Source: a virus (taxonomy: Duplodnaviria > Caudoviricetes). Taken from it: a stretch of DNA of 58,558 nucleotides. The notes beneath the pieces are model-generated. The model worked only from the letters and a program-made list of their open reading frames with translations, searched no databases and was not told where the DNA came from. The stretch covers positions 1 to 58,558 of IMG/VR virus record IMGVR_UViG_3300010403_000180; one strand, given 5' to 3'. Both the position numbers and the translations under genes were made by a program. Positions 16,518 to 54,721 of the stretch are shown one piece after another. Every line of letters begins with the position of its first letter. Within the stretch, counting starts at the first letter, position 1.

Positions 16518-16518
16518 G

Positions 16519-19588: not shown

Positions 19589-20082
19589 CCTTGAAAATGT
19601 TTATTTATTTCGTGCTTTCTTAAATTATGATAGCCGTCTATGGCTTTCTGAATTAAACCAGAGCTTGATTGGCTCTTGCCTCCACCAACACCAAACACCA
19701 TCTTCACTCCAAGCTGTTTGCAGATTTCTTTTTCAGGAATGTTTTTGAGCGTGCGGTCTCCACCCTTTGCAAAGATAAATTCCAGTTCGGAGGTTGGATA
19801 AAGAAACCTAAAAGTAGCAACAACCAATTTTATTGTTTCACAAACAGTGGCATCATGGTCAACCGATTCAACAACGTAATTCACGCCCTGTATTTGGCTG
19901 ACAATATGCATCCTTTCTTTGCAATCCATAAAAGGCACCGTACCTTTTACCACAACCTGCTGGTTATTATTTACAATCACCACCTCCCACCAGCCGAGCT
20001 TCTGTGCGTCTCGTAGATACTCAATATGCCCGCTGTGAATTGGGTTGAAATAGCCACTGGTAATTACAATGCTTTTTTTCAT
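19585..20082 (-). CDS. Cytidylyltransferase-like nucleotidyltransferase
   Basis: GYFNPIHSGH (HIGH-type), FAKGGDR. Confidence 0.85.
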   Translation of the reverse strand: MKKSIVITSGYFNPIHSGHIEYLRDAQKLGWWEVVIVNNNQQVVVKGTVPFMDCKERMHIVSQIQGVNYVVESVDHDATVCETIKLVVATFRFLYPTSELEFIFAKGGDRTLKNIPEKEICKQLGVKMVFGVGGGKSQSSSGLIQKAIDGYHNLRKHEINKHFQG

Positions 20083-20633
20083 TTTGTTGCTTCAACGATT
20101 AGTTTGTGAATATGTTCTTTAAGCGTAATGTTTTTGAAACCTGCCTTAGTAAGATAATCTATCATAGACTCATGGGTAAAATGATTCCTATGTACGTCAA
20201 ACTCGTGCTTTTGGGCTCCCGTGAACGTGTATATCCATCGCCTAGGGTTAATTTTGGCCTTACCTTGGCACTTCGGGCAGGCGGGGTTAGCTTTGAAGCC
20301 TTCCACGCTGTCGGCCTTGTGGGGCACGCATTCACAGATTTCCTTATTCGCATAATAAACCATGGCCTTGCCTGCATCAGGTACCTGTATTTTAAGCTTA
20401 CCGCCGTAGTTTAAAATCCTATACCATTCAGCTAGTACCTTCTCGGTGTCCCTAAAAGAAATGTGTTCCAAGAATTCTATGGAAGTAATCTCCTCCGCTT
20501 CGTTGGCTTTGGCAAACGGATATGGCACATCCGTGAGGTCGTGTACCAGCTCCACGTTGCCGATTTCGTTTTGGCTATCAATGTTAAGATAGCCATTCAT
20601 TGATTTTTTACCGCATCCTAGGTTTAGTTTCAT
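20079..20633 (-). CDS. SAM-dependent methyltransferase
   Basis: MKLNLGCG, FLEH, RILNYGG..VPD. Confidence 0.85.
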   Translation of the reverse strand: MKLNLGCGKKSMNGYLNIDSQNEIGNVELVHDLTDVPYPFAKANEAEEITSIEFLEHISFRDTEKVLAEWYRILNYGGKLKIQVPDAGKAMVYYANKEICECVPHKADSVEGFKANPACPKCQGKAKINPRRWIYTFTGAQKHEFDVHRNHFTHESMIDYLTKAGFKNITLKEHIHKLIVEATK

Positions 20634-20634
20634 G

Positions 20635-20811
20635 TTAGTTGATGTGTTCGGTTATGATGAATAATTTTAACGCTGCGACCCACAAGAAGTTAGGCAACCA
20701 CTTGGGTTTGGGTTTAATCAGGCCAGTGTATTTCTCGGCAATCTTTTCAACCTTTGCCTGGTAGGTCTTTCGCATGAATTTTCTTAGCTTTTTGTCTTGT
20801 CTTGAACTCAT
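20635..20811 (-). CDS. Small basic hypothetical protein (not in ORF track)
   Basis: 58 aa MSSRQDKKLRK...KPKPKWLPNFLW; exactly fills the gap between neighbours. Confidence 0.5.
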   Translation of the reverse strand: MSSRQDKKLRKFMRKTYQAKVEKIAEKYTGLIKPKPKWLPNFLWVAALKLFIITEHIN

Positions 20812-20813
20812 GA

Positions 20814-21338
20814 TTAAGTAATTTCGGTATATTTAATATTGTTTGCTTTTATGAATTCCTTGATTTCTTTTTCTTGCTGTGCGTACTTTGGGTCAGTCAT
20901 TTTACGGCTGTGCCATTCAACTTCTAAAAATTCAACCCGTTCCATCATTCCGTCCTTAATCATTTTTATCAGCACTGGGTACTCGGCTCCCTCAATGTCC
21001 ATGCGTAGGTAAATTCGGTGCTTCTTGATGTACTTAATGTAGTCTGCAAAGTCAAAGCAATCTACCGTATAAATCCTCCCGTTTTTAAACCGTATCTTTT
21101 CTTTCATCACCGATGACTTTACGTCATCCGACCTTTCCGAAAACTCTATCTCACCGTTAAAATCCAATGCCGCACGCTTCATAAATAGTGTCCCATATTC
21201 TAGCCGTATCGCATCCCATTCCTTGGGATATTTTTCTCCTAGTGGGTCAATGCCGATAGACTTAATACTCCTATCGTGGTTCTTGTAAAAGTCTATAATG
21301 GTCTTTCCGTTGTTGCACCCAAGGTCAATGTAAATCAT
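20814..21338 (-). CDS. FkbM-family methyltransferase
   Basis: IDLGCNNG, LRMDIEGAEY, VEWH. Confidence 0.85.
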   Translation of the reverse strand: MIYIDLGCNNGKTIIDFYKNHDRSIKSIGIDPLGEKYPKEWDAIRLEYGTLFMKRAALDFNGEIEFSERSDDVKSSVMKEKIRFKNGRIYTVDCFDFADYIKYIKKHRIYLRMDIEGAEYPVLIKMIKDGMMERVEFLEVEWHSRKMTDPKYAQQEKEIKEFIKANNIKYTEIT

Positions 21339-22063
21339 TTGAATTCCCAGCCCGACAGAACCAGCATCTTAAACGCTCTGGCCTTGATGTGCTTGTATTT
21401 GTAATTTGAGCCGACTTTATCGTCTATCAATTTGCACTTTGGGGCGACTGACCGTAGCGTCATTCCTTGCTTGCGGGCTAGGTAGCTTAGGAAGATATCT
21501 TCACATTGATTTTGGTCGTAAAATATTTCATTTTCAATCACTATTTTCTGGTCAAAGAATTTTCGGCTTCCTACCATCCCGCCCGTGCCGATGTAATCCA
21601 CCTCCATCCCTGCGGGGCAAAGCGAGAATGTGTCTTTGTGATAATCGGTCTCGCCTTTCTTCCAGCGTTTGCTATACCAGCCCAGTAAACAGTTCTCACC
21701 GTATTGCTTGTACATTTTCAGGTTGTATTCCAGGAAGTCTGGCTCTAGGCTCATGTCGTCATCTATTGAAATAATGGGGTCTCCATGGGTCAGGGGTATT
21801 AACTTCCATCGGTCGCCCCCGCTGATGTTCTTAGGGCTTCGCACAATCCTTACCTTCTCTCTGGGGAAATGACCAAGGTCTAAAACGACATCGCTGTTAT
21901 TCCAAACGTTTAACATAAAATCCTGCTCGGTTTGTTTCTTCAAATCACTAAGGATTTGCTTGAACCGATGTGGCCTCTGGTAAATTGGCAGGATTATGCT
22001 AATCATTTTTTGTAAAAATAGTAATAAAGCTTCTTGTGGCAGTCCCAGCGGTAGCCAATCCAC
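21335..22063 (-). CDS. GT2 glycosyltransferase (start probably MISIILP near 22007)
   Basis: ISIILPIYQR, IDDD, CEDIFLS. Confidence 0.8.
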   Translation of the reverse strand: MDWLPLGLPQEALLLFLQKMISIILPIYQRPHRFKQILSDLKKQTEQDFMLNVWNNSDVVLDLGHFPREKVRIVRSPKNISGGDRWKLIPLTHGDPIISIDDDMSLEPDFLEYNLKMYKQYGENCLLGWYSKRWKKGETDYHKDTFSLCPAGMEVDYIGTGGMVGSRKFFDQKIVIENEIFYDQNQCEDIFLSYLARKQGMTLRSVAPKCKLIDDKVGSNYKYKHIKARAFKMLVLSGWEFK

Positions 22064-22635
22064 CTAACCATTTCTTCCACTTGCCATTTTTCCATCATCT
22101 CGTTGTGAACCTCCATGGAAATCTGGTTGATTCGGTATAGGGTAGACTGTAATGCTTTGGTGATAATGTTGTACTCGGAACCCTCGCAATCCAACTTCAT
22201 AAAATCAACCTCCATTAAGTGATTCAGTTCAATAATGTCGTCCAGCTTTACGGTTTTTACATCTTGGAATCTTTTCTTGCCCTTCAAAAATAGGCTGTGG
22301 CAACCGCTATCCTCCTCGCTTAAATACAGCATCCGTTCACCCCTTTCAGAATCAACAGCAACATTAAAGCACTTAATCCTTTTCTCAAAGTGATTAAGCT
22401 TTACGTTCTCAACGAGCAGTTCAAAGTTCTCTTTGTTCGGCTCGTAAGCATATACTACCGCCCCCCTCTCGGCACACTTAATGGCCGTGCCGCCAATGTG
22501 GGCACCAATATCAATAGCCACTTTCATGGCTTTGGGTATGCGGTACGCATCCTGCTCAACCTCATTGCGAAGGATTTCTTCGTCTCGCTTGTTTCTTACC
22601 TTGAATTTTAGATGCCCGATTTCTATTATTTCCAT
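22003..22635 (-). CDS. FkbM-family methyltransferase
   Basis: IDIGAHIG, YEP, MKLDCEGSEY, MEVH. Confidence 0.9.
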   Translation of the reverse strand: MEIIEIGHLKFKVRNKRDEEILRNEVEQDAYRIPKAMKVAIDIGAHIGGTAIKCAERGAVVYAYEPNKENFELLVENVKLNHFEKRIKCFNVAVDSERGERMLYLSEEDSGCHSLFLKGKKRFQDVKTVKLDDIIELNHLMEVDFMKLDCEGSEYNIITKALQSTLYRINQISMEVHNEMMEKWQVEEMVRWIGYRWDCHKKLYYYFYKK

Positions 22636-22639
22636 GGTT

Positions 22640-22828
22640 TTAATTTGTTAATACTGTTCCTTTTAAATTAGCTTGCTCAAACTTTTTCTTCATTATGATA
22701 ACTTCAAGCAGTTGCTCCTTTGTCCATTCCTTGTGCGGGCATCCGATTTCGTGTTGGTCTCGGCGGTGGATACAATTCCACACAACAATTTGCCCTGCCA
22801 TTTTTTCTCTCATTTCTTCTATTGTCAT
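22640..22828 (-). CDS. Hypothetical protein
   Basis: 62-aa ORF coupled to neighbours. Confidence 0.5.
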   Translation of the reverse strand: MTIEEMREKMAGQIVVWNCIHRRDQHEIGCPHKEWTKEQLLEVIIMKKKFEQANLKGTVLTN

Positions 22829-23409
22829 TTCTTTTTTGCTGTTACTAAATAACCAGTCTCATTGTGGTGCTTGTAATTGTTCATCGGCCGCATCCGTTCT
22901 CGCTTGAAAAAGTCCATCAATAGGTTTCCCTCTTTGGTGTCTCTGATGACAATGTCTTTAATCTCAAACCCAGCTTCGTGCATAAGCTTCTGAACGCCCC
23001 ATTTTGTGTATCGTAGATAGTCTTCGTTAATTGGCCCGTGGATTGGAGTGATAAAGTGAAAGCTCATGTACAGCGTGCCGTCTCTCTCCATCAGCTCGGC
23101 TATATTCTTCAATGCCTGGACTGGGTTCCAAAGATATTCTGAAACCTCTAAACAAAAGACCGTCTCAAACTTTTTCCAATGCTCTGCCAGCACCAAACCC
23201 TGTGGCACATTCAGGTCTGCAATAATGTCTGGGTACTTAATGCAAGAATGTGGCTGTTGCATGTCAAGGATTTTTATTTCCTTCACGTTCCAGCTCTTTA
23301 CCCTGTTAGCTTCCATGGGCAACTGGCTTCCGCCCACGTCTAAAACAATCCCAGCCACGTCTATGGTTTTAAGCCAGCTATTTAATTGTTCTCGTTGTAT
23401 GCTACTCAT
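22825..23409 (-). CDS. SAM-dependent methyltransferase
   Basis: VLDVGGS, CLEVSEY, H..DYLRYT. Confidence 0.82.
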   Translation of the reverse strand: MSSIQREQLNSWLKTIDVAGIVLDVGGSQLPMEANRVKSWNVKEIKILDMQQPHSCIKYPDIIADLNVPQGLVLAEHWKKFETVFCLEVSEYLWNPVQALKNIAELMERDGTLYMSFHFITPIHGPINEDYLRYTKWGVQKLMHEAGFEIKDIVIRDTKEGNLLMDFFKRERMRPMNNYKHHNETGYLVTAKKK

Positions 23410-23620
23410 CTGATTCTGGTTTACTTGATTTGCCGTTTTTCCAATCTATGTAAGCTTGCCCAGTTAGATTAACCCATTCAGGTAACTTGTTAAAAAAGAT
23501 TCCCTTAATAGCCAACGCTATCAATGACCCCGCAATAAATCCAATAAGAATTATGAACATCCAGCTATAAATATCCATAGGAACATTTTTCGTTAATGAT
23601 TCCGAAGGCGTTATAGCCAA
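23402..23620 (-). CDS. Small membrane protein
   Basis: Single hydrophobic segment; true start probably downstream of 23620. Confidence 0.45.
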   Translation of the reverse strand: MAITPSESLTKNVPMDIYSWMFIILIGFIAGSLIALAIKGIFFNKLPEWVNLTGQAYIDWKNGKSSKPESDE

Positions 23621-24503
23621 ACATGTCTGGCTTAATCGTTCTCACCTTTTCTCTGATGTGAACCGAATGATAATCCAGCGGTACAATGCTTTGCCTCCTT
23701 TCAAAATTTGCTCTAGTTTCTCCTTTCCATAGGTCATAGACATATTCCCTATCGCCACGAACTCGTTCAGGTGTGGCTATGGGCTTGCGAACCGTAACCT
23801 TGCCATATTCAAGGTGAGCCTGTTTCGTAAGTGCGTAGTAGTTCCTGTAACGTAGTTCTTTGAGCTGTTCCTCATTCATAAAGCTGAAATCGTAAGCATG
23901 AATTTCGCCAACTATCGCATCCATATCTACATTGGCAATCTTGTGTCCGAAATTGGTGCCGTTCTCGGTGAACTTATGAATGATGGGTATATTACCCCAA
24001 CCCCACTGCTCCATGTCTAAACCCCACTTAATTTTAAATCCCCTGCTCTCGCAGTTCCTTTTGAACACGAGAAATGGGCTATCCTTCTTTGTAAAATGCC
24101 TGTCTAAAATAACGTAATGAATCTTGTTTGCCTGCAACGCCAGCTTCCCTCGGCTCTGCATTAACTCACAATAGTCTTTGAACTTTTTCTGCGGGTCTGC
24201 CTTGTAAATCCAATCAATATCAAACTTGAATACCACGTCGCCCGTGCATTCCTCATAGCCTCGGTTAAAGTTATGGCTCATGCGTGAGTATGTCCAGTCT
24301 TCTTCCCACTTGGTGTCTTCGTCGCAGATAATTCTAACCTTCGGGTCGCCAATGCTTCTAATTGCTTCTAATGTGCCATCGGTGCTACCACCGTCAATTA
24401 CTACGAGTTCATCCACAATCGCAAGAAAGCTCCTAATGCTTTCAATCACGGGATAATTAAACTTTAAGGCGTTGGTTGTGGCACAGAAGGCTGATATTTT
24501 CAT
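23565..24503 (-). CDS. GT2 glycosyltransferase
   Basis: DELVVIDGGSTDGT, CTGDVVFKFDID. Confidence 0.87.
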   Translation of the reverse strand: MKISAFCATTNALKFNYPVIESIRSFLAIVDELVVIDGGSTDGTLEAIRSIGDPKVRIICDEDTKWEEDWTYSRMSHNFNRGYEECTGDVVFKFDIDWIYKADPQKKFKDYCELMQSRGKLALQANKIHYVILDRHFTKKDSPFLVFKRNCESRGFKIKWGLDMEQWGWGNIPIIHKFTENGTNFGHKIANVDMDAIVGEIHAYDFSFMNEEQLKELRYRNYYALTKQAHLEYGKVTVRKPIATPERVRGDREYVYDLWKGETRANFERRQSIVPLDYHSVHIREKVRTIKPDMFGYNAFGIINEKCSYGYL

Positions 24504-25108
24504 TTGATTGTTTTTAGTAAAACGTAGAACTGCGGGAACATGTTCTTTAAGTTAGGCAGTTGCTTTTCCCACACCTTTACCAGCTTAAATTTATCACTCG
24601 GAAATAGTTCTGATAAATCCTTTGGGTCAAAACTGTACATATCTGCTGGGCTAGTATGACCAGATGACGATAACTGCAAGTATAAAAACTTCTGGTTCTT
24701 CAGTATCTTGTGCCACTCCATGATAGTGGTTTTCACATCAAACGCATGGTCAAGCGAATTGGAATACACCATATCAAACTTGTTTACCCACTCATCTGGC
24801 ATCTTGTTAAAGTCCATGCAATATAGGTTTGGTTCTGTCAATGCCTTAATCTTTTCGTTTATTTCCACGCCCCACATTTCTGACTTCTTGAACTTATCAA
24901 CCTTTTTAAAGCCGAAATATTCGTTGCCATTGCGTACACCCATGCAGATTATCTTGCCAAGTTCGCCTGTTATTTCTCCGACCTCTTTTGTTACCTTCTC
25001 AAAATCAGCCCAGTTCCTATCAAAACTCATCTCTCCCCACTTGTGGTCAGACCTGCTGATTTGCTGTGCAGTATATTTTTCGTAGTCGTTGTTCTCGTGC
25101 CGTTTCAT
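24500..25108 (-). CDS. SAM-dependent methyltransferase
   Basis: ICMGVRNG, FDMVYSNSLDH, WHKILK. Confidence 0.75.
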   Translation of the reverse strand: MKRHENNDYEKYTAQQISRSDHKWGEMSFDRNWADFEKVTKEVGEITGELGKIICMGVRNGNEYFGFKKVDKFKKSEMWGVEINEKIKALTEPNLYCMDFNKMPDEWVNKFDMVYSNSLDHAFDVKTTIMEWHKILKNQKFLYLQLSSSGHTSPADMYSFDPKDLSELFPSDKFKLVKVWEKQLPNLKNMFPQFYVLLKTIK

Positions 25109-25947
25109 AGTTTCTTAAATTCTTTAAGATAATTTTCAGCCATAATTTCAACAGAAATCACTCCCGCCTCAACTTGTTCAGGTATTCCACCACCATCTCT
25201 AGTATCATAGATAATCTTTAATCCGCAGGCCATAGCTTCGGCTACGGTGTTGGAACATGCTTCAAATGAAAATGGGCAAAGCAAGAAGTCCGCTGACCTC
25301 ATCAGCTCTGCTATCTCGTGAGGGTTCTCTAAAAATCCGATATGGGTATATGCCTTTTCTGCCCCTCCGAAAAAGTCAAAAGCGTACTTGTCATTGTCTG
25401 TTGAAAACTTACCTGCTATCCACAAGTGGATTTTTGGGTTCTCAAAGAACCATTTTTGGAAGTGATACCATGCCGTCTCCCACCTCTTAATCTCGTCCCT
25501 GCTGCTTCTAATATATAAATACTGCACTTCCCCCTGTTGTGGCACCTTCGCCCCTTCTGGCTTAAATATGGAGGTATCAACACCGTTTAGGATTACTTCT
25601 CCGTCCTTCTTAATGAATGGTTGCAAGAATTCTTTTGCCCACTTTGATTGATAGATAATCAAGTCTGCCATTTGAGCGTAGTCATATAGTCTTGTTACCC
25701 CTGTGTTCCTGTTGCGTGCGTTGCGTGGGGCATTGTCCACCCGAAGCACAATCTTTTTACCAAGTTGCTTTGCCATCTTCACTTCTTCTTTCTCTGCAAG
25801 GGTTGGTCCCGTAATAAAGTAAATATCGCAGTCTTCCAGTTTACCCACAAACTGAACCTGCCCAGCCAGTGCCTTCATGATGTTACGGGTGAATGTCCAT
25901 CCACCACCAACCCCCTTCCTTGCTTTTTCGGGTATAAATATCTTCAT
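25105..25947 (-). CDS. GT4 glycosyltransferase
   Basis: ILNGVDTSIF, EACSNTVAEAMACGL. Confidence 0.88.
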   Translation of the reverse strand: MKIFIPEKARKGVGGGWTFTRNIMKALAGQVQFVGKLEDCDIYFITGPTLAEKEEVKMAKQLGKKIVLRVDNAPRNARNRNTGVTRLYDYAQMADLIIYQSKWAKEFLQPFIKKDGEVILNGVDTSIFKPEGAKVPQQGEVQYLYIRSSRDEIKRWETAWYHFQKWFFENPKIHLWIAGKFSTDNDKYAFDFFGGAEKAYTHIGFLENPHEIAELMRSADFLLCPFSFEACSNTVAEAMACGLKIIYDTRDGGGIPEQVEAGVISVEIMAENYLKEFKKL

Positions 25948-26693
25948 AACTTTTCAAGAATATAATTAGGGTCTCTAACGTAGTTAATCTTTTTCATTCC
26001 TTCATCCATGTACCATAGGAAATCTTCAAAGAACTCCCACTGGTTGTACTTCTCAATTTCCCAACTATGTCCCCAAATTTCAAAACGTCCTCCTTCGGCT
26101 AAAACTTTATCAAAGAGTTCTTTTGCTACTTCATGCCAGGTTCTCTTTTTGTAAATCTGGTGTTCAGCGTGGACATGAATGCTTGGGTTAGTCTCGTATG
26201 GGTCGCTGGCAAACTGGATATTTAATCCCCTAACAGTTCTACCCATTTCAAACCCACTCTCTCGGACAATGTCCTTGGTTTCAATGCTGAACCTTCCTCT
26301 TGGGTAACAGAATTTGGTTACGGGTTTTCCCGTCATTCTTTGCAATTCAACTTTACTATCGGCTATCTCCCTTGTTGCTTCGGCTCGGTCTAATAGCTGA
26401 ATCTCCCGTGGGTGCGTGAGTGTGTGAGCACCAATTTCAAATAATGGGTCTTTGGATATTTCTCTAACTTGGTCGTCAGTAATTTCCTTAACTTTGGTAG
26501 GAATATAAAATATAGCAGGAATGTTGTACTTCCTAAGCAATGCAACTAATTGCATATCTTGTTTCCTGCCATCGTCCCATGAGCTGATGATTTGTATTTT
26601 TTTTGTTTCCATATCTAGTTTGATGCTAAGGTCAAGAAACTTATTTACCCTGCTTATCAATAGTTTCATAAATGACCATAGGGTTAGAAGCAA
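25944..26693 (-). CDS. Polysaccharide deacetylase (NodB/CE4-like)
   Basis: SWDDG, GAHTLTHP, FCYPRG, WGHSWE. Confidence 0.88.
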   Translation of the reverse strand: MLLTLWSFMKLLISRVNKFLDLSIKLDMETKKIQIISSWDDGRKQDMQLVALLRKYNIPAIFYIPTKVKEITDDQVREISKDPLFEIGAHTLTHPREIQLLDRAEATREIADSKVELQRMTGKPVTKFCYPRGRFSIETKDIVRESGFEMGRTVRGLNIQFASDPYETNPSIHVHAEHQIYKKRTWHEVAKELFDKVLAEGGRFEIWGHSWEIEKYNQWEFFEDFLWYMDEGMKKINYVRDPNYILEKL

Positions 26694-27063
26694 TTATTTT
26701 TTGAATATATGCGGTGAACTTTTCGTTGACCTCTAAGACAAATTCCAGCTTTTCCAATCGTTCTCTGATGGCTTTCTTCACTTCTTCCAGTCCCTTCCGT
26801 TTGTCTTCAAGCTCGTTCATCTGTGCCTCCCAAATCAATACCTTAGCCTTGTCGGTTTTATCGCCCTTAGCCTTTTCATCCTGTACAAACCGCTTGATGT
26901 TTTGAATCTCATCCTTCGTCTTGGCGATTGCATCATCGCCGCCATGCTCTGCGAAACTAACTAGGGCGTAGTGGTAATCAAGATTGGCACGAACCTCCTG
27001 TTTCTCTCGTTCTTCCACAACTCCTTCTAAGATTTTTACCGTTGTTTTTTTATCTATTTTCAT
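26641..27063 (-). CDS. Hypothetical coiled-coil protein
   Basis: 140-aa charged helical ORF within operon. Confidence 0.6.
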   Translation of the reverse strand: MKIDKKTTVKILEGVVEEREKQEVRANLDYHYALVSFAEHGGDDAIAKTKDEIQNIKRFVQDEKAKGDKTDKAKVLIWEAQMNELEDKRKGLEEVKKAIRERLEKLEFVLEVNEKFTAYIQKIIASNPMVIYETIDKQGK

Positions 27064-27067
27064 GGTC

Positions 27068-27967
27068 TTATATTATTTTTAATAATTCTTCTTTAAAATT
27101 ACGCTTTGGTTGCCAGCCAGTTGCCTGCTTGATTTTATCTACATTCGCCATATTCATTTGGGGGTCAACCTCTGGCTTCTTCACTTCTTCAACTTTGAGG
27201 TCGGGGTATTTGCTTCTAAAAATACTAATCAATTCATTCAGTGTTACAAGCTCGCTTCCGCCTAGGTTGAATATCTGAAAGTCCTTGTCGGGCATCGGGT
27301 AGTGTATGAGTGATTCAATTCCTTCGCACAAGTCATGCACGTTGGTATAGCCTCTTGCTGAACTGCCATCGCCAAACTTGGTGAATGGTTTGCCAGCTTC
27401 AAGGGCTTGCTTCATCTTGGCGACTACCATATCCTGCCTGCCGTTTTCGCCATACACTGTGAATGGTCGGAAAACAACCACGGGAATTCTATCACCAAAG
27501 TATTGGCAAACCATTTCAGTTCCCTTCTTGCTTACTGCGTATGGTGAGAGCTGGTGATTGCATGGCAAAGTTTCTTTCAAGCCCATGCCTCCGTTTCCGT
27601 ACACTGATGATGATGAGGCAACCAATACCCTAGCCTTGTATTTCTCGGCGAATAGTAAGACCCAATAGGTTCCCGTAACGTTTGTCTCAAAATATTTGTC
27701 GGGTGCCATTAAGGAATTACGCACGCCAGCGAGTGCCGCTAAGTGGATAACCACTTCTGGTTTGGTTTCCTCAAATATCGCTCTAACATTCTCAACCTTG
27801 CGAATATCGTCTTGCTGACCACGTTTAATATCCATACCGAAAACCTCGTGTCCTAATGAAACAAGGTATTTGCAAAGATGCGTCCCAATAAACCCGTTGT
27901 CGCCCGTTACAAGTATTCGCATGTTATATGAATTTTTTATACCCCTGCTTGTCCAACAACTCGTCAT
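27068..27967 (-). CDS. NAD-dependent nucleotide-sugar epimerase (UDP-glucuronate 4-epimerase-like)
   Basis: TGDNGFIG, HLAALAGVRNS, ASSSSVYG, YAVSK, FTVYG..GRQDM. Confidence 0.88.
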   Translation of the reverse strand: MTSCWTSRGIKNSYNMRILVTGDNGFIGTHLCKYLVSLGHEVFGMDIKRGQQDDIRKVENVRAIFEETKPEVVIHLAALAGVRNSLMAPDKYFETNVTGTYWVLLFAEKYKARVLVASSSSVYGNGGMGLKETLPCNHQLSPYAVSKKGTEMVCQYFGDRIPVVVFRPFTVYGENGRQDMVVAKMKQALEAGKPFTKFGDGSSARGYTNVHDLCEGIESLIHYPMPDKDFQIFNLGGSELVTLNELISIFRSKYPDLKVEEVKKPEVDPQMNMANVDKIKQATGWQPKRNFKEELLKII

Positions 27968-28739
27968 TGAATTTGTCGGTGGCTGCTAGCACGGGCATTT
28001 CAACTCCGTTAGCTTTTGCAAAATCTAGGATTGCCTTTGCATCTTTCGGTAAACACTTTCCCCAATAGCCTCTCTTGCCTTTGTGCATGATGGTCAAATG
28101 TGTCCTACCTACCCTTTTGTCGGCTGCTAAACCATCAACAACTCCGTCCCATTGTTCCTCGGTAAAGCCAATCTTCTTGCATAGGTCATAGATTTCGTTG
28201 TTCTTGGCAACCTTCACGGAGAACCAAGTGTTCTTGGCGTACTTAATCATCTCGGCAACAATGGCTGGGACAATCCTTTCATGCGGGGCAAGCGGTAACT
28301 GTTGCATCACGTCCTTGGCAACGTTTAAGCTCTTTTCGGTGTAGCCCAATACTTGGCTGTCTGGGTGGTTCATGTCTTGGTCGCTGGTTTCCTCGGTTAA
28401 GAACTCTGGGTTAAACAGTATCTTATGCTGTGGGAATTTAGCTTGCAGTTTGTCAGTGGTGCCTGGGGTAATCGTTGATTTTAAGATGATGGTCTTCTCT
28501 CCTGTGATATGGGTCAATGCTTCCTCAACAATGCTGGTGTTGCATCCTACGCCCATCACATACGGGGTTGGCAGGGCAACGTAAATAAAGTCTGCCGCAT
28601 TCACGTCCTCAATTTTTCCTACTCCTTTTAAGTCAAAACAGAAAAGTTCATAGTGAGGCTTGTTCTCAAAGTACCTTCGCAATGCACCGCCCACCATGCC
28701 ATGACTTCCAATGATTCCCACTTTGTATTTTTTATCCAT
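27924..28739 (-). CDS. UDP-glucose/GDP-mannose dehydrogenase family protein (short form)
   Basis: GSHGMVG, LPTP, KSTITPGTT, NPEFL, AEMIKY..N, GYWGKCLPKD. Confidence 0.88.
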   Translation of the reverse strand: MDKKYKVGIIGSHGMVGGALRRYFENKPHYELFCFDLKGVGKIEDVNAADFIYVALPTPYVMGVGCNTSIVEEALTHITGEKTIILKSTITPGTTDKLQAKFPQHKILFNPEFLTEETSDQDMNHPDSQVLGYTEKSLNVAKDVMQQLPLAPHERIVPAIVAEMIKYAKNTWFSVKVAKNNEIYDLCKKIGFTEEQWDGVVDGLAADKRVGRTHLTIMHKGKRGYWGKCLPKDAKAILDFAKANGVEMPVLAATDKFNDELLDKQGYKKFI

Positions 28740-28743
28740 ATTT

Positions 28744-29745
28744 TTATATGAGTTTTTTAGTCCACGTTTGTGGAGTTTTCTCGTTAATAATTTCTATTGG
28801 TAAATGATATTTGAAACTCTTGGTTCCTCGGCCTTTAATGTAAAGCACCATCTCACGCAACCCGTCTTCCATCTTCCATTTTGGTTTATAGGCAAACAAA
28901 GCCCGTGCCTTATCAGCCGAGCAGTTTGCTTCCTTCACTTCTTGGGGTCGTCCTGTAATATATATTGGCTTTAAATCAAAGTTTAGGATATTGGCAATTA
29001 CCCGTGCCAACTCATTGATGGTTACGAATTCTTTATCGGGTCCAATGTTAATGACCTCGCCCACAACGTCTGGGTGGGTTGCCATCTGATAGAGCGGGTC
29101 AATGCAGTCCTGCACAAAGCTGAAACATCGCTTCTGTTCTCCGTCTCCGTAAATGATTGGCTGTTCGCCTTTGAGCATCTTGTTGATAAAGATACTGGCT
29201 ACATTTCGGAATGGGTCATCATACTTCTGGCGTGGACCAATGATGTTGTGTGGTACGGCAATCACATACTCCATGCCGTGAACTTCTGATAAGTTCCTAA
29301 GCATCAGCTCTGCCGCATACTTGGCAATGCCGTAGGGGTCTTGCGGGTTAGGCACCATGTCTTCTCTGAATGGCGTTTCGTTCGTTCCATAGCGAGCCAT
29401 AGATGAACAAAGCACAAACCTCTTTACTTTGTTTTGAATGGCCGCTGATATTACACTGGCACTCGCCAATGAGATATTAGCGGTAATGAGGTGTGGACTG
29501 AACACGCTTAATCCTTCATAGGCGGTTGCGGCACAATGGTAAACCACATCCACGTCCTTCATGCAGTTGACCATGCTGTTTAAGTATTTGCAGTCAAGGA
29601 AATGAAAATCAACCTTGTCTGAAACATTGTCTTGGTAGCCACCTATTAAATTATCGCACCCAGCAACTTCGTGCCCTTCTGCTAGGAACTTGTCGGCAAG
29701 ATGACTCCCCAAGAAACCTGCCACCCCTGTAATAAACACTTTCAT
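28744..29745 (-). CDS. NAD-dependent nucleotide-sugar epimerase/dehydratase
   Basis: TGVAGFLGSH, YGIAK, GDGEQKRCFSFV. Confidence 0.92.
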   Translation of the reverse strand: MKVFITGVAGFLGSHLADKFLAEGHEVAGCDNLIGGYQDNVSDKVDFHFLDCKYLNSMVNCMKDVDVVYHCAATAYEGLSVFSPHLITANISLASASVISAAIQNKVKRFVLCSSMARYGTNETPFREDMVPNPQDPYGIAKYAAELMLRNLSEVHGMEYVIAVPHNIIGPRQKYDDPFRNVASIFINKMLKGEQPIIYGDGEQKRCFSFVQDCIDPLYQMATHPDVVGEVINIGPDKEFVTINELARVIANILNFDLKPIYITGRPQEVKEANCSADKARALFAYKPKWKMEDGLREMVLYIKGRGTKSFKYHLPIEIINEKTPQTWTKKLI

Positions 29746-30920
29746 TAAATGAATATTACTGCGTCCCCCCCTTCGTCAGTAAATGGTAATGATGCATATC
29801 TTCCTGCGTCCATGCCGTGGTCATTGACCTTGACTGGGTCGTCGGTAGATTTGCCGTCTTTTGTTTTCCATGAATAACTTTTTGCTTCCTTCTGTAAATT
29901 TATTGAATCCTTCGTTATATAAAACTTGTGGCTCTTAACATAATCAATGCCCGCCTTCACATCCTTGTCTGCCGATTCAATGCTGTACCCTGCCCGTTCA
30001 ATCGCCTCAATTCGGGCTGGCTCGGTGTCGGAGAATATCGTCGTTGACTTATCAATCCCCAGGCTATTCATTAGGTCAATTAAGTCATCATTGGTTAAGT
30101 GGCTCTGGTAAATATGTTCCTTCCAGTACAAGTCTTTGTCCTTCTCTCTGACTTCAATCAATGCGGTCGGGTTGTTAAAGCCAAAGTCTAAGCCGTAGTG
30201 CCTTCTGTCATACTTCTCTGGCAGTTCATTGACCAGCTCCCAGTGGGTGTAAATGTTGCTCTCGGCCAATCCTCTCTCGCCTAAGCCGTAAATCTTCCAG
30301 TAGTTTTGGTCTTTGTCTTTGTATCCTTCAATTTCATTAACAATGCTCTTGGGTAAAAATGGGTTGTCCTTATAGCTTGACCTGTGGATAATGCAGTCCT
30401 TCCTTGGCAATACCTCATCGTAAATCCAGTGGAACTGATAGCTGGGGTTGTAGTCCATAAAAATCATCTTGCTCGTTCGGAGTGCTAGCTGTCGGAAATC
30501 TTCAAGCTTGAATTCGTTTGCCTCGTTCATCCATAGGTAGTGTCTCTTTCGTGAGCGGACCTTCATCGGTTGGTCAACCGCTAAGAATTCTATCTGGCTT
30601 CCAGTCTTCGGATAGGTGAACGTGTGGGTGGCCTTATTGTGAAACTGCTCGTCGTATATTCCCATCTCGTCTAGCTGGGCAATCACATCCTTCATGGTGG
30701 TGGCTACTAAGGCGGGAAAAGTCTTTCTGGCTATCGTAATTAAAACGCCTTCTTCCTCTTGCAGAATATAGCAACATAGTTGAGCCAAGCTGATTGATTT
30801 ACTACTTCCCGTTCCGCCTTCCTCAACAATGATTTTATATTCTTTCTTCTGGTATTCTGCATAGGCTCGTCTAAATACCCTCGTTATCGGAATTTCTATT
30901 TCGTCGGTTGTTGAATTCAT
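29745..30920 (-). CDS. terL: Terminase large subunit (PBSX/SPP1-like)
   Basis: EGGTGSSKS Walker A, WMNEANE, DYNP, YKDNPFL, GLDFGF, NDHGMDAGRY. Confidence 0.93.
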   Translation of the reverse strand: MNSTTDEIEIPITRVFRRAYAEYQKKEYKIIVEEGGTGSSKSISLAQLCCYILQEEEGVLITIARKTFPALVATTMKDVIAQLDEMGIYDEQFHNKATHTFTYPKTGSQIEFLAVDQPMKVRSRKRHYLWMNEANEFKLEDFRQLALRTSKMIFMDYNPSYQFHWIYDEVLPRKDCIIHRSSYKDNPFLPKSIVNEIEGYKDKDQNYWKIYGLGERGLAESNIYTHWELVNELPEKYDRRHYGLDFGFNNPTALIEVREKDKDLYWKEHIYQSHLTNDDLIDLMNSLGIDKSTTIFSDTEPARIEAIERAGYSIESADKDVKAGIDYVKSHKFYITKDSINLQKEAKSYSWKTKDGKSTDDPVKVNDHGMDAGRYASLPFTDEGGDAVIFI

Positions 30921-31320
30921 TGGCTTGTTCTTCTGTTTCTACTAAGGTGAATTTCACCCTTGCGATGTCGCCGTCCTTTCCTTTGCCGATTTCAACACTG
31001 CCTTTCTTGGTAACTGGAACCTTTCTAAATTCGTTGTCCTTATGTTCAAGATACCATTTAGCCGTCATCAAGTCTCCCTTCTGAATTTCATCATAAACCA
31101 CGTCCTTTGACTTCATGTTCTGGGTCTTCTTAAAACCAGCTAAACGCCTCCGAAAGCCTTCATTTGCCTTTAAATAACGGAGGAGACCACTCTCTGAAAT
31201 CCTGCAATACGTTACAGTTTCTGTCAATGTATACCCCCTTGAATAGGCGTACTCTAAATCAGCCTTGACCTTGCTTATTTCCTTCCCATCAAACCATTGT
31301 CTTCCTCCTTTGTTTTTCAT
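30871..31320 (-). CDS. Terminase small subunit (putative)
   Basis: HTH-like N-terminus, AKWYLE motif; directly upstream of terL. Confidence 0.7.
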   Translation of the reverse strand: MKNKGGRQWFDGKEISKVKADLEYAYSRGYTLTETVTYCRISESGLLRYLKANEGFRRRLAGFKKTQNMKSKDVVYDEIQKGDLMTAKWYLEHKDNEFRKVPVTKKGSVEIGKGKDGDIARVKFTLVETEEQANEFNNRRNRNSDNEGI

Positions 31321-31322
31321 GG

Positions 31323-31787
31323 TTACATTTTCTTATGGCATTCAGCACATAGAGTTTTGTTGTGCTTAATTAAGTTTTGAAACAATTTGTTTTTTATCTC
31401 CGTTGATGAGATGCCCTTAAAGTAAGGAAGCACCACTACCTTACCGCCAATCTTTCTCATGTATTCACGTTCCTTGTCCTTGGTTTTATCCCACTCTTGA
31501 CAAATTACATAAGTGTTTACCTTATACTTCTTGAGTATAGCCAGTGGGCTCATCACATCCCGCTTCCCTACCCCGATTACTTTATCCACATACCGCAATC
31601 CCTCAATGGTTTTCTTTCTGAAATTGAATGGGATAACGGTCTCTTTATTCTTGTAAAACCTAATTGCTTCATCGGTGTTCACACCAACAATCAGATAACC
31701 AAAATCCTTTGCTCTTTTAATAGCTACCAGTTGTCCGTAGTGAAACATATCAAACGCTCCTTGGAAAAATACAATATTCTTTTTCAT
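31323..31787 (-). CDS. Cytidylyltransferase (TagD/RfaE-like)
   Basis: GAFDMFHYG, LIVGVNTD, YVDKVI, GISSTEI. Confidence 0.88.
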   Translation of the reverse strand: MKKNIVFFQGAFDMFHYGQLVAIKRAKDFGYLIVGVNTDEAIRFYKNKETVIPFNFRKKTIEGLRYVDKVIGVGKRDVMSPLAILKKYKVNTYVICQEWDKTKDKEREYMRKIGGKVVVLPYFKGISSTEIKNKLFQNLIKHNKTLCAECHKKM

Positions 31788-35344: not shown

Positions 35345-35357
35345 GATTTGAAAAAAT

Positions 35358-35956
35358 AGCTTAGCCTAACATATCTCATCAGAGCGGTTCTTAACGTAAC
35401 CCGACAAAGCACGTCATATCCCGACTGAACCCATTATAGGATTTTTACATCCTATGCGAAGCCACCATGGGTGGCTCGTGCACAGAAGATAACGCAACAT
35501 AACAAAACGTAACGATTCCCGACCTAACCCAACAGAACAAATGCCAACTCGTCAAAACACAACACCGCTCATCCCGACATAACTCAACGTATATAGGATT
35601 TACATCCTATGCAAGAAACATATAAATGTTCCTCGCATAAAAAGTAAAATAACGAAACGGAACATGGCTTACCTTAACCCACTCTATCGCATCCGAACTC
35701 AACTTAACAAAACATATCGCACTAGGGTTTTTACCCTATCCCAATTCCCCTTAAAGAGAATTAGGGATAAAGCAGAACCTACCTCATCTCAACCAGTCCC
35801 TTCCCGTCATAACTCAACACGGTATAGCCTAGCTTAATCCTAATAGGACTTACGCCCTACCCCAATCTGCCGTAAAGCAGATTCGGGGCAAAGCACAACA
35901 ATTCTCGGCTGAACTCAACTCAACATAACTTGACAAGACTCAACGCAACGTATCCA
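35358..35956 (-). ncRNA. Array of five pentamer-periodic tracts (NN+GUU-like units) separated by four double hairpins; putative guide-RNA array
   Basis: Tracts 35358-35432 (15 units), 35491-35590 (20), 35651-35720 (14), 35771-35835 (13), 35892-35956 (13); 72/75 units have + strand C at position 3 and 36/75 begin AAC; linker stems need G-U pairs and carry GUAA loops on the minus strand. Confidence 0.85.
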
Positions 35957-35965
35957 AGAAAATTA

Positions 35966-36214
35966 CTACTTCACCTCTCTAATCGTTTTTATTTTGTCAG
36001 CCACGCCAGTCAATCTAAAATATCCAGTCTTGGTATGAAATGCCTTTATGTAGGCGTTCAAGAATCCGAGAGTCAGTTTCATATTCCTTGCTCTTTCATC
36101 ATCCATGGGCATTCTTGAATATGCATCGGCCGATACAATAATTGCATCAAGCAAATCCTTTGCTGGCACAACTAGGTCAAACTCTTTTAATGAACCAAAT
36201 GTTTCTTTTGCCAT
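35966..36214 (-). CDS. Hypothetical protein between RAMP gene and array
   Basis: 82 aa, starts 1 nt after RAMP stop. Confidence 0.65.
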   Translation of the reverse strand: MAKETFGSLKEFDLVVPAKDLLDAIIVSADAYSRMPMDDERARNMKLTLGFLNAYIKAFHTKTGYFRLTGVADKIKTIREVK

Positions 36215-36215
36215 G

Positions 36216-36746
36216 TTACTTTACAACTTTAAATTCTTTAACCTCAAACCGACCGTACCTTGGTCTCTTGTCTCCAATGCCGCAGTAGAGACCAGCATAC
36301 TCTAAGGCTTCTTTTACAACACGCTCTCCAATTCTATCGTCAATGACATCAATCTGAAAGGTGGCTTCCCACTTATCAAACCTTGGTCTTGCCCTCATAA
36401 TTCTAGCCCTTCCAACAACCTCTGGCTGTCTATCAATTTCGTACTTTGGGTACTTGTGCGGGATTAGTAATTGGTTGATGAATATCCCCCCCTTGAAAGC
36501 ATCCTTGTAGGTCTTTTTGCCTTCAAACTTGAAGTTCACAGAAGACTTAATCATGGCCGCTTCAAAGTGCTTTGCGGGAATACAGTTTTCCCCTTTCTCG
36601 TTTTTATACAATGCTGCTTCCGCATCTTTTTTCGCATCGTAATTCTTCTCTTTAAATTTCGTCCCGCCTTCTGGGTGCTGTTCATCTGGGAACCTGTGCT
36701 GTAATAATGGTGCAACTCCTACTACCGTCGCTTTAATTTTTAACAT
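36216..36746 (-). CDS. Stand-alone RAMP/Cas7-like RNA-binding protein
   Basis: N-terminal strand + PLL (IKATVVGVAPLLQH), CIPAKHFEAAM (IPxxxxKxA-like), RPRF..W..TFQI, C-terminal Gly loop GIGDKRPRYGRFEV. Confidence 0.75.
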   Translation of the reverse strand: MLKIKATVVGVAPLLQHRFPDEQHPEGGTKFKEKNYDAKKDAEAALYKNEKGENCIPAKHFEAAMIKSSVNFKFEGKKTYKDAFKGGIFINQLLIPHKYPKYEIDRQPEVVGRARIMRARPRFDKWEATFQIDVIDDRIGERVVKEALEYAGLYCGIGDKRPRYGRFEVKEFKVVK

Positions 36747-40052: not shown

Positions 40053-40256
40053 CTACTTATCCACAGCCCCGTGTCTCGTATATTTCCGCTTCTTTACTCC
40101 TCTTGCCTTGCATTCTTTGTAATAAATTTCTTTCACTCTCCATTCAGAAAGGTTAAACATCGTGGCTAGGGTTTTGAAAGTGGTCTTGATTTCCTTGTCC
40201 TGTTTCAGCAGGAAAATCTTTTGGTTGCGTTCGCTTTTTGTTGGTGTTATTTCCAT
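40053..40256 (-). CDS. Small HTH protein (Mor-like)
   Basis: ERNQKI..TFKTLATMFNLSEWRVKEI. Confidence 0.65.
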   Translation of the reverse strand: MEITPTKSERNQKIFLLKQDKEIKTTFKTLATMFNLSEWRVKEIYYKECKARGVKKRKYTRHGAVDK

Positions 40257-41245
40257 AGTAGTCTTTTTATTATTTCACTTATTACATTGACCGTAACAGC
40301 ATTTCCCAAACATTTATAGCGTTGGGTTTCGCTGATTCCCGAAGTCCAGTCATCTGGGAATCCTTGTAAACGTTCACACTCTTTTGGCGTTAATCTTCTG
40401 ATTCCAAATCCCTGCATTACCCCTCCCGTATTTAATCCATCAACAGTAAAACTATAATCTCCTTGATAATTTCTCTGGTTCCTGTTTAAAAATTTAAGTG
40501 GCACTGCTATCACTGGCTGACCACTTCCGTCTTCTCTCGCCCGTGCGGGTAACGTTGGTGCGTTTCCGCTTTTTACTTCTCTGAATCCTTGTCCGTCTTT
40601 GTGGGTTCTAAGGGTGCCGATGTGCGTCCTTTGGCCGTGGTTGTCAATACCTTTGTAATAGTTGCAGTCAATCGTGTTACTGATATTTTTTTGGTTATCT
40701 TCTTCATGGTCTCCGCTGAAAGGAAATATTTGTCGTCTGGGTTTTCCTCTAAGATATCCGACAATAAACACTCTTTCCCGATTCTGCGGGACTCCGAAAT
40801 TCTTGCTGTTAAGCACACTCCATTCACAATCATACCCCAGTTCATCAAGGGTGCTGACGATTGTCGCAAAGGTATTACCTTTGTCGTGGTTAAGGAGTCC
40901 TTTAACGTTTTCAAGAAGTAGATACGAAGGTCTTTTCCTTTCAATGATTCTTGCGATGTCAAAAAATAAAGTGCCTCGTGTATCTTTGAATCCTCCCCGC
41001 TTTCCAGCAACGCTGAAACTTTGGCAAGGAAATCCGCCCACGAGAAGGTCAAAGTTTGGGAGTTCGTCGGGAATAATTGTGGTTGCATCTCCATAGTTTT
41101 TGTAGTGGGGAAAGTGTTTCTCAAAGATTTGAATGGCGTACTTATCTACCTCTGAATATCCAATGCACGTTCCCCTGTCGCCAATACCCAGTTCAAACCC
41201 GCCAATCCCCGTGAACATGCTGAAATATTTAACTTCCATCACCAA
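40247..41245 (-). CDS. dcm: DNA (cytosine-5) methyltransferase
   Basis: FTGIGG, GGFPCQSFS, ENVKG, PQNRER, RRLTPKECERLQGF, GNAV. Confidence 0.95.
   Translation of the reverse strand: MVMEVKYFSMFTGIGGFELGIGDRGTCIGYSEVDKYAIQIFEKHFPHYKNYGDATTIIPDELPNFDLLVGGFPCQSFSVAGKRGGFKDTRGTLFFDIARIIERKRPSYLLLENVKGLLNHDKGNTFATIVSTLDELGYDCEWSVLNSKNFGVPQNRERVFIVGYLRGKPRRQIFPFSGDHEEDNQKNISNTIDCNYYKGIDNHGQRTHIGTLRTHKDGQGFREVKSGNAPTLPARAREDGSGQPVIAVPLKFLNRNQRNYQGDYSFTVDGLNTGGVMQGFGIRRLTPKECERLQGFPDDWTSGISETQRYKCLGNAVTVNVISEIIKRLLWK
40573..41124 (-). CDS. Alternative-frame ORF nested in the C5 methyltransferase (EcoHK31I beta-subunit-like)
   Basis: 183-aa open frame ending LSDILEENPDDKYFLS, a C5-MTase-associated motif. 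Confidence 0.55.
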   Translation of the reverse strand: MRNTFPTTKTMEMQPQLFPTNSQTLTFSWADFLAKVSALLESGEDSKIHEALYFLTSQESLKGKDLRIYFLKTLKDSLTTTKVIPLRQSSAPLMNWGMIVNGVCLTARISESRRIGKECLLSDILEENPDDKYFLSAETMKKITKKISVTRLTATITKVLTTTAKGRTSAPLEPTKTDKDSEK

Positions 41246-51100: not shown

Positions 51101-51236
51101 AACCATGTTTTTCAAACCACCAGCACAAGTGAATTGGCTTGTAGTTTAATAGGATTTCTTCACGAACAAAACCCTTCAATAGCCAGTGAAGGGCGTTAGT
51201 AGTTTTGTGAATAATTTTTCCTATTAGTCTTTCCAT
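48180..51236 (-). CDS. Mucin-like Ser-Pro repeat protein with LamG/lectin-like beta domain (putative virion fibre)
   Basis: 1018 aa: conserved leader, short SPS tract, beta domain (LSTGQWYRISL..EVFKDG..SDIYVDD), ~500-aa SPS tract, Trp-rich tail. Confidence 0.8.
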   Translation of the reverse strand: MERLIGKIIHKTTNALHWLLKGFVREEILLNYKPIHLCWWFEKHGLEIPKYFIAGKSASPSASPSLSPSASRSPSASPSASPSASVSPSSSPSASPSASVSPSVSPSISPSFSPGTPNTIFADPGGDAGFNVAITTAGGFWGTVSGASLATDFVHGGHIKSIKLPGGSSNFIQKSAILNDAGRRVSHYIYIETLPSSGSQVILQMVNGSGSVVASLKVTSAGVLQLFETTNQIGGDGPTLSTGQWYRISLAYTITDTTHNRFEVFKDGVSAISVTNATITNTGTSTLTFAVSGAPTTMATRLSDIYVDDYAGLIDTGDIWVTAKRPKANGTANDWTTQIGSGGSGYGTGHSPQVNERATDIANGWSIATAGALTEEYNIETASEGDINITGFSIIDVIGWANVQSLTLPRTISLIINGSPQDISSPAASPTLAFNAGNITSYPSGSGADIGLATKSVSDTYKVYEIGILIVYIPTAGSASGSPSASPSSSPSASPSASASPSSSPSASPSASSSPSSSPSSSPSASPSASASPSSSPSSSPSQSPSASQSPSASASPSSSPSQSPSASVSPSASPSSSPSQSPSASQSPSASVSPSVSPSASPSSSPSSSPSQSPSASVSPSASASPSSSPSQSPSVSPSSSPSQSPSASISPSPSPSQSPSASVSPSASPSASVSPSSSPSASPSSSKSPSESPSASPSSSPSQSPSASVSPSASPSQSPSASVSPSVSPSVSPSPSPSQSPSASVSPSVSPSASPSSSPSQSPSASVSPSPSPSVSPSPSPSASPSASVSPSSSPSASPSDGASASPSLSPSASASPSSSPSSSPSASPSASVSPSASPSASPSASPSSSPSQSPSASASPSSSPSSSPSQSPSASASPSSSPSSSPSASPSSSPSQSPSASVSPSVSPSSSPSQSPSSSPSQSPSASASPSSSPSSSPSQSPSASVSPSVSPSASPSASPSVSPSISASASPSAPPFQTIIYELVRHWFGKHWVEVKSGQFAAIFWEVKPIELSQ

Positions 51237-51763
51237 GGATGGAGATTAGGTATCGGCTTATTAACCTGATAATAAAAGATTTGTTCTGCCGAACCACTTG
51301 GCTTGTTAATTCCCATCCGTCTAAATTGATTATATGCTCCCATGTCGGAATGTAAACCATTCACGACAATGTAATTCGCAATTCTTCCAAGATTATTTAC
51401 AAACTCCTTTTTAGTAACAAAGGGACATGGACTTGAGCAGTCCTTAGTATCAAACAAATCTACCAAAACGGCATCAAACTTTCGGAAAGTTTCAACGTAT
51501 TTTTCCGCATCCATTTCAATAAATTCAACTCCGTAGCGGTTCTCTTTTATGGGTTCAATATCCACTGCCGTGATTGGGACATCACCATAGAGCAATCGGA
51601 TTAACCCCGCCACTGTTCCATCTCCATAGCCGAGCATCAAAACACTCTCTGGTTTATATTGCGGAACCATGTAAATCCAATAAGAGAAGGTTAAATACGT
51701 TGTTGGAGGGTATGCCGAATATGAATTACCATTATTGTCCTCCGTTAAGAGTAGATTGCTCAT
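51224..51763 (-). CDS. Class I SAM-dependent methyltransferase, paralog of 3824-4342
   Basis: WIYMVPQYKPESVLMLGYGDGTVAGL..VPITAVDI. Confidence 0.78.
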   Translation of the reverse strand: MSNLLLTEDNNGNSYSAYPPTTYLTFSYWIYMVPQYKPESVLMLGYGDGTVAGLIRLLYGDVPITAVDIEPIKENRYGVEFIEMDAEKYVETFRKFDAVLVDLFDTKDCSSPCPFVTKKEFVNNLGRIANYIVVNGLHSDMGAYNQFRRMGINKPSGSAEQIFYYQVNKPIPNLHPWKD

Positions 51764-52736: not shown

Positions 52737-53065
52737 CGTTTCTGCCTCATTTTTTTAATTTCTTTGAAATTCTTAATCAGCTTTAAGTTCCCACCAGAAC
52801 TTCCCGTTTCATCTTTATAGGTGTCTCGGTAGTAAGCCAACCGATTTACCATCTTGGTAGCTTGAACCATTGCAGTAACCAGATGCTCTGTTATTTTTTC
52901 CTTCAACTCTTTGTCTGGGTAATCTTGGATTTGGTCATAAATTACCCTTAGCGTTTCACAAATACATTCTTTCCAGTGGGTATCGTAAATAAGCGTCCTT
53001 CTTGCTTCTGCCCTTTCATTAGGTTCCATAAGTTTTAATAATTCCTGGTTGCTTAAATTCTTCAC
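52733..53065 (-). CDS. Hypothetical protein
   Basis: 110-aa ORF in cluster. Confidence 0.55.
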   Translation of the reverse strand: MKNLSNQELLKLMEPNERAEARRTLIYDTHWKECICETLRVIYDQIQDYPDKELKEKITEHLVTAMVQATKMVNRLAYYRDTYKDETGSSGGNLKLIKNFKEIKKMRQKR

Positions 53066-54720: not shown

Positions 54721-54721
54721 T

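Follow-up and report, generated by a model that had tools for sequence, protein, structure and literature searches.

A phage VIPR locus whose codon-register sense guides probably silence integrated satellite-like elements of Patescibacteria

A VIPR locus in a tailed phage

The minus strand at positions 35358–36746 of the window (the whole stretch of 58,558 nucleotides analysed here, IMG/VR record IMGVR_UViG_3300010403_000180) carries a gene for a RAMP protein, a small open reading frame (ORF) and an array of tracts with a five-base period, which on sequence grounds we assign to a phage VIPR system. VIPR, first described in 2026, is a DNA silencer related to CRISPR, as set out in the accessible text of 10.64898/2026.04.26.720920. 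The features are as follows, all on the minus strand.

36216–36746, minus: vipr, encoding a RAMP protein of 176 aa (phmmer to SUSP1 Vipr)
35966–36214, minus: 82-aa ORF immediately downstream of vipr, where a vap accessory gene would be expected (a similar ORF follows vipr in L001)
35892–35956, minus: guide tract T1; units 1–11 (35902–35956) read as a CTAGLKIDEQE motif, putatively of a Toprim primase-ATPase, with unit 4 mismatched (phylum scan, homologs)
35833–35894, minus: separator 1, predicted long hairpin including the last T1 units, plus short TAGG...CCTA hairpin (35844–35859); fold z −5.7 and alignment
35771–35840, minus: guide tract T2, including a leading GG unit; target not found in viral, phylum and element searches
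35721–35774, minus: separator 2, predicted long hairpin plus short hairpin (35723–35738); fold z −3.4
35651–35720, minus: guide tract T3; target not found in viral, phylum and element searches
35591–35650, minus: separator 3, predicted long hairpin plus short hairpin (35594–35609); fold z −7.2
35491–35590, minus: guide tract T4, 20 units; reads as N6/N4 methyltransferase motif I, nearest the TEIGD..DGFLGSG subfamily (scans)
35433–35492, minus: separator 4, predicted long hairpin plus short hairpin (35437–35454); fold z −4.3
35358–35432, minus: guide tract T5; units 1–13 (35368–35432) match GQGIVFGTKPLEI of a ParB-N6/N4 methyltransferase (gapped scans)
35351–35356, minus: six-T run ending the array (sequence)

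The window is that of a tailed phage, with portal, capsid, terminase and tape measure genes and a tool-estimated completeness of 94%. The product of the gene at 36216–36746 aligned with SUSP1 Vipr 36pp_D (phmmer E = 2.4e-9) over residues 110–170, from the end of the thumb to the G-loop, and Csm3/Cas7-type chains matched the fold of its model (pLDDT 89.6). R120 and D159 are the counterparts of R138 and D177 of SUSP1, and K160 (codon 36267–36269) occupies the position of W178; H17 corresponds to SUSP1 H17 by position only, lying outside the aligned stretch. The 82-aa ORF had no match in PHROG, Pfam, NCBIfam or Atlas and gave no alignment with the ORF after SUSP1 vipr. The phage has the minimal VIPR layout of vipr and a small ORF followed by a guide array. 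Neither CRISPR repeats nor other cas genes turned up among ORFs read around the array. The phage lacks a PF01555 gene, and one DNA run, which may be its source, shows no sequence variation.

Elsewhere in the window, long gene clusters at 15564–31787 and 51224–58388 resemble glycosyltransferases, methyltransferases and nucleotide-sugar enzymes, with two genes confirmed by PHROGs and the others read from translations. A C5 cytosine methyltransferase gene lies at 40247–41245 and is overlapped by a 183-aa ORF (40573–41124) on the same strand in another frame.

Anatomy and codon register of the guide array

The array (35358–35956, minus strand) comprises five tracts in which each five-base unit has three near-constant and two free bases. 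Among the 75 units the near-constant triplets include GTT (36), GAT (9), GCT (8) and GTC (6), giving a G-H-Y scaffold (G1 96%, G2 4%, Y3 93%) that is a related consensus and not the canonical GGY. Strong hairpins are predicted 3′ of four of the five tracts, and T5 has none (fold z +1.7). The long hairpin of all four separators includes the final units of the tract before it (z −3.4 to −7.2). The short TAGG...CCTA hairpin recurs in every separator, its inner pairs covary as read from sequence and alignment, and folding predictions have it competing with the base of the long stem. The separators had no Rfam match over threshold, and a hammerhead reading of them was dropped.

The original prediction decoded the free pairs as sense-strand codon positions 1–2, and recomputation on the minus strand returned the same degenerate peptides: [CW]TA[DE][FL][NK][IM][DE][DE][HQ][DE][FL]V for T1 (35892–35956), [KN][RS][IM]V[DE][IM]GG[WC][DE][DE][RS]L for T2 (35771–35835), A[IM][FL][KN][DE]RA[SR]G[KN][KN][IM]PS for T3 (35651–35720) and G[HQ]G[IM]V[FL]GT[KN]PL[DE][IM][SR][KN] for T5 (35358–35432). 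Its unit counts over the five tracts were likewise reproduced, with TA absent, TG found twice and 56 of 75 units starting with a purine (41 of 55 in T1, T2, T3 and T5); CA also occurs twice. TA is its own reverse complement, so its absence (P = 0.052 in either orientation) gives no information on strand. The sense-codon signal is the purine-first bias: the probability of at least 56 such units is 1e-5 under background, 3e-6 under an antisense 1–2 model and 0.06 under a sense 1–2 model. Compared with codon statistics from 61 long phage ORFs, as the prediction had proposed, the sense 1–2 model outperformed the six others for every tract (posteriors 0.84, 0.62, 0.55, 0.72 and 0.53 for T1 to T5). 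Pooled over all 75 units, its log-likelihood ratio against background came to 9.7 nats, and over the 55 units of T1, T2, T3 and T5 to 7.2. Single tracts are weak taken one at a time, since the antisense model attains the observed score in 4–8% of draws.

The phage does not appear to target itself, as had been claimed by eye: the best matches in the window with a 1-nt skip covered 17–18 of 26–30 bases, and 24 of 40. Read as peptides, all tracts matched the proteins of the phage at shuffle level only. Skip lengths other than 1 nt were tried on the phage genome and on VIPR loci.

Targets of the guide tracts

We scanned T5 in viral, metagenome and GTDB sets and T1–T3 in viral contigs and phylum genomes, with T2 and T3 also compared with fetched elements. 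An exact 11-unit scan with T5 gave eight matches in metagenome contigs, five of them perfect over 13 units (26/26), and a 10-unit scan of GTDB gave four, three of them perfect over 13 units, in records titled Parcubacteria, WWE3, Pacearchaeota and Bdellovibrionales. All 12 exact matches fall at one site, on the sense strand and at codon positions 1–2, of a gene with ParB_N and N6_N4_Mtase domains; eight of them reach 26/26 over 13 units, of which two or three lay beyond the search pattern. Conservation at codon positions 1, 2 and 3 across the 12 sequences was 0.97, 1.0 and 0.53, partly by construction. The final two or three units of T5 mismatch the site. In 60 regions picked by protein search, 28 sites scored 19–25 of 26 and none was perfect; the gene family is present in 54 of 401 genomes of the phylum of the Parcubacteria record. 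These matches argue strongly that T5 targets sense codons of a ParB-N6/N4 methyltransferase gene.

With three mismatches allowed, an 11-unit pattern of T1 matched in 9 of 391 genomes, against four for the reversed-pattern control. All nine matches are sense, in frame and on C[TS]AGL[KRQ][IT]DEQE or something very near it, within a gene for a 620–740-aa Toprim primase with an extra C-terminal region that we read as an ATPase. Unit 4 is mismatched in all nine, and the best DNA match seen was 20/22. Among 120 listed homologs of 2650, the decode agrees at 10 of 11 residues in 83, and D or E stands at position 4 in none. A 9-unit exact scan of viral contigs gave five matches, none extending; the constant mismatch at unit 4 accounts for this empty result. 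T1 has a good, if not certain, candidate target in the Toprim primase-ATPase motif of an integrated element. T1 had also been considered as an anti-vipr guide, with a peptide score of at most 40 among 98 Vipr homologs (scored without a shuffle control), and this idea was dropped for the primase motif.

T4 gave one exact 12-unit viral match, in a methyltransferase motif I, which was also its best DNA match and lies on a 41.7-kb viral contig. On related methyltransferase genes it scored 32–35 of 44, where shuffles reached at most 28, and it had no perfect full-length match in the sets searched. T4 and T5 fit two subfamilies of the ParB-N6/N4 methyltransferase.

For T2, the original reading as a class I methyltransferase motif I (35771–35835) found no support: none of 112 viral matches to its 8-unit core read so, as judged from translations. 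The best of these matched 7 of 12 flanking bases, and they fall in a ParB-domain end motif, a glycosyltransferase motif (IVEIGGWDESL) or a repeat protein; six of the 112 read NRLVEIGGWD, which on our own reading may be a ParB-like end motif. An 11-unit exact scan of viral contigs gave no match. In phylum genomes, 12 units of T2 matched in 0 of 401 and 11 units in 7 of 391, the same as the control (7); three of those seven read GNMIVDIGGG, which may be MreB-like. T3 gave 12 matches in an 8-unit exact scan of viral contigs, none extending, and matched in 4 of 391 phylum genomes (control 5) at unrelated sites. As degenerate peptides in both orientations, T2 and T3 matched the fetched elements at shuffle level. 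A reading of T3 as a recombinase helix-turn-helix was dropped, as it gave no match. T2 and T3 probably serve as guides in the same way, with targets that have drifted or have yet to be sampled. The claim that all five guides carry sense, in-register sequence of foreign coding regions thus stands strongly for T5, well for T1, and for T4; for T2 and T3 the composition fits and targets were not found.

Target elements and host

Two small integrated element families are seen in Patescibacteria (L254–L313 and L334–L341), each ending in a large serine recombinase. A literature search found no published description of either.

In the 60 methyltransferase regions, a large serine recombinase lies downstream on the same strand in 40, and small terminase, large terminase and recombinase all lie downstream on the same strand in 31. 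All eight primase regions have the recombinase, in the order primase, small ORFs, large serine recombinase, and the two element types never occurred together in the regions fetched. A phage satellite combines an integrase with genes for packaging or replication and lacks a capsid; with a recombinase and either terminase or primase present, these elements are candidate satellites. The locus thus supplies real target families for the guides of an uncultured phage. No guide of related loci matched the target elements (0 of 165; one shuffle did).

Phage head genes, searched with the head proteins of this phage as the only queries, matched in 1 of 72 element regions. That region is a related prophage flanked by host genes (L299, L352; G362:C1, about 361000–385993) in a Patescibacteria genome, with a capsid 53% identical and 8 of 81 proteins matched. 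It carries a ParB-methyltransferase before the terminase, a gene this phage lacks. Genome G362 had no Vipr match and no DNA match. The presence of a related prophage in the same phylum supports Patescibacteria as the presumed host of the phage, to which the target families of T5, T4 and T1 also point.

Scaffold letters and the Vipr G-loop

W178 of SUSP1 Vipr stacks on scaffold G2. In all 61 loci with an aromatic residue at that position, G2 was at least 63% (median 90%), and in the four non-aromatic loci it was 4% for K (this phage), 8% for E, 27% for M and 62% for H; this count leaves out three array loci in which the residue was missed by the pattern and six loci without an array under the first caller. 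The K and M loci lie in one clade of a quick tree and the E locus is distant, suggesting two independent losses of the aromatic residue. For SUSP1 Vipr, the accessible text of 10.64898/2026.04.26.720927 places H17 and D177 on G1 and R138 and W178 on G2. Three loci with Ala in place of D177 have N-G-Y arrays. A strict rule from Asp to G1 is ruled out, since L160 and L351 are without G1 though the Asp is kept. The loci in which the G-loop residue tracks the scaffold are L114, L168, L132, L134 and L145, together with K160 in the window.

From these sequences, the G-H-Y scaffold of this array appears to go with the absence of an aromatic residue to stack on G2. A G-loop recognition code may be at work, in which an aromatic residue demands G2, its loss (K, M or E, in two lineages) frees that position, and Asp-to-Ala goes with loss of G1. 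If so, protein sequence could suffice to recognise orthogonal Vipr/guide pairs, and a scaffold variant tied to one residue would be useful for engineering orthogonal VIPR tools. In the accessible parts of 10.64898/2026.04.26.720920 and 10.64898/2026.10.21.760802 we found no statement tying scaffold letters to the G-loop residue.

Sense bias across related loci

From 471 viral Vipr loci we took the 80 best, and in 66 of these we called 219 distinct tracts. A six-frame mixture over the 219 tracts gave sense 1–2 a weight of 0.81 (bootstrap 0.71–0.87) and antisense 1–2 a weight of 0.05 (0–0.14), and sense was favoured over antisense in 163 of 219 tracts and 54 of 66 loci. Sense 1–2 remained the best fit after removal of base composition (r = 0.55, 0.76 and 0.93), and GA exceeded both TC and AG about 2–4 fold in all three GC classes. 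This bias is one of composition and not of mapped targets. Several antisense-leaning loci cluster near SUSP1 in a quick tree, which agrees with the published account of targets on both strands. Away from SUSP1, the majority of natural guides may be sense copies (by composition, about 80% as opposed to 5% antisense). Matches of guides to VIPR loci were rare (1 of 209 at skip 1, and one each at skips 0 and 2).

Some tracts in related loci depart from the common pattern. The first tract of the closest relative (L001:3849–3908) has five TA among 12 units, unlike codon positions 1–2 either way, and may aim at non-coding DNA. In L115, L116, L117 and L124, back-to-back tracts shift register after a short GGA or GGATT joint, resembling the staggered arrays described in the accessible text of 10.64898/2026.04.26.720920. 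Two near-duplicate guides at L147:2193–2374 consist almost wholly of GT, TA, AA, GA and AT pairs.

The sense bias may reflect a rule governing where guides come from or how they are used, for example evasion of capture by target mRNA or derivation from transcripts, and it is relevant to how VIPR guides arise and come to be selected. Tentatively, we join three points: the G-loop code, the sense-copying rule, and two apparently undescribed satellite-like families that may be silenced by blocking the first gene of an operon for packaging or replication and excision. That all three hold together seems to us possible, at somewhat less than even odds.

Proposed mechanism

We propose, with a probability of roughly 75%, that codon-register sense guides of this phage VIPR system silence integrated satellite-like elements of Patescibacteria. 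Going by published VIPR work, the array would be transcribed together with vipr, each tract would be coated by Vipr, the variable pairs would bind the template strand with the wobble base skipped, and the bound filament would block transcription. Provided that the RNA is the minus strand, as we assume, sense guides would by that mechanism pair with the template strand. We further suggest that a block at the first gene could, by polarity, also silence the terminase and recombinase downstream, and could stop a satellite-like competitor of the phage from excising or packaging. The matches fall on motifs conserved across gene families, and none is to an element of the sample that yielded the phage.

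The guides could instead work by the same mechanism on competing full phages or prophages that share the methyltransferase and primase families, with the chromosomal elements merely sharing motifs. The related prophage, with its ParB-methyltransferase upstream of terminase, means that full prophages may also be targets; the viral contig carrying the best T4 match and some primase homologs named from other phyla lean the same way. Yet the gene of that prophage scores only 27/40 for T4 and nothing for T5, the 9-unit core of T5 had no exact match in viral contigs, every T5 match fetched with enough flank lies inside a small terminase module, and the tested head genes are confined to that one region, so we regard full phages as unlikely to be the true targets.

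Slightly less probable still is that T5 and T4 are the only real codon-register guides, with T1 a chance match, T2 and T3 antisense, non-coding or decayed, and the purine bias due in part to RNA selection. One of 100 shuffles equals the peptide score of T1 in regions partly chosen by T1, and the constant mismatch of T1, the low posteriors of T2 and T3 (0.55–0.62), the published hits on both strands and the 12 of 66 related loci that lean antisense are all compatible with it. Against it stand the nine T1 matches, which share one motif whereas those of T2 and T3 scatter, the excess of GA over both TC and AG, and the sense 1–2 fit that survives removal of base composition. That the array is a relic, its aromatic residue and scaffold G2 (4%) lost in a decayed, non-functional system, is very improbable, given an intact 176-aa gene, a non-aromatic residue common to most of the 28 closest homologs, a T5 that retains 26/26 and hairpin pairing kept despite changed bases. 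Silencing of integrated satellite-like elements by sense guides remains the reading we prefer.

Comparison with known systems

The accessible text of 10.64898/2026.04.26.720920 describes a 1-nt skip, located 'overwhelmingly' at the wobble base, together with alternative repeats and with targets in either strand; with codon-register, wobble-skipping guides already published, our core claim is a confirmation. As far as that text describes SUSP1 VIPR type II (Vipr, vap1, vrRNAs), the phage system resembles it in having a homologous RAMP protein with a small partner gene, a downstream array of guides with a 5-base period (tails predicted to be structured follow four of the five tracts, as counterparts of the structured 3′ tails of SUSP1), a 1-nt wobble skip, targets on putatively mobile elements and no self-targets. 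It differs in its G-H-Y scaffold (GGY in SUSP1), a partner ORF without alignment to that of SUSP1, separators that are predicted double hairpins and a host that is presumably a patescibacterium. Unlike the guides described there, which have targets on both strands, the three guides assigned here are all sense.

According to the accessible text of 10.64898/2026.10.15.759431, the wobble-aligned vrRNA4 of SUSP1 silences the recombinase of the F5 satellite. Our guides likewise appear to read codon positions 1–2, within a motif conserved in integrated elements that bear a recombinase, but here they match genes (methyltransferase, primase) situated upstream of it. One of the two element types also carries terminases; that text gives their occurrence in F5 satellites as 0%.

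Non-canonical repeats (NNNGG, YNNNG, NNNNG) and scaffolds (GAC, CAC, WGT, TGH) appear in the accessible parts of 10.64898/2026.04.26.720920 and 10.64898/2026.10.21.760802, respectively. As in those, non-GGY scaffold letters stand here beside a Vipr-like protein, and the G-H-Y scaffold may belong to the published NNNNG or GAC classes. The modelled fold of Vipr is like that of the CRISPR class 1 RAMPs Csm3 and Cas7; unlike in CRISPR class 1, the guide is non-contiguous, with neither CRISPR repeats nor other cas genes seen near the array. The system itself is known, and what the sequences appear to add is its target families, the link between scaffold and G-loop residue, and a family-wide sense bias.
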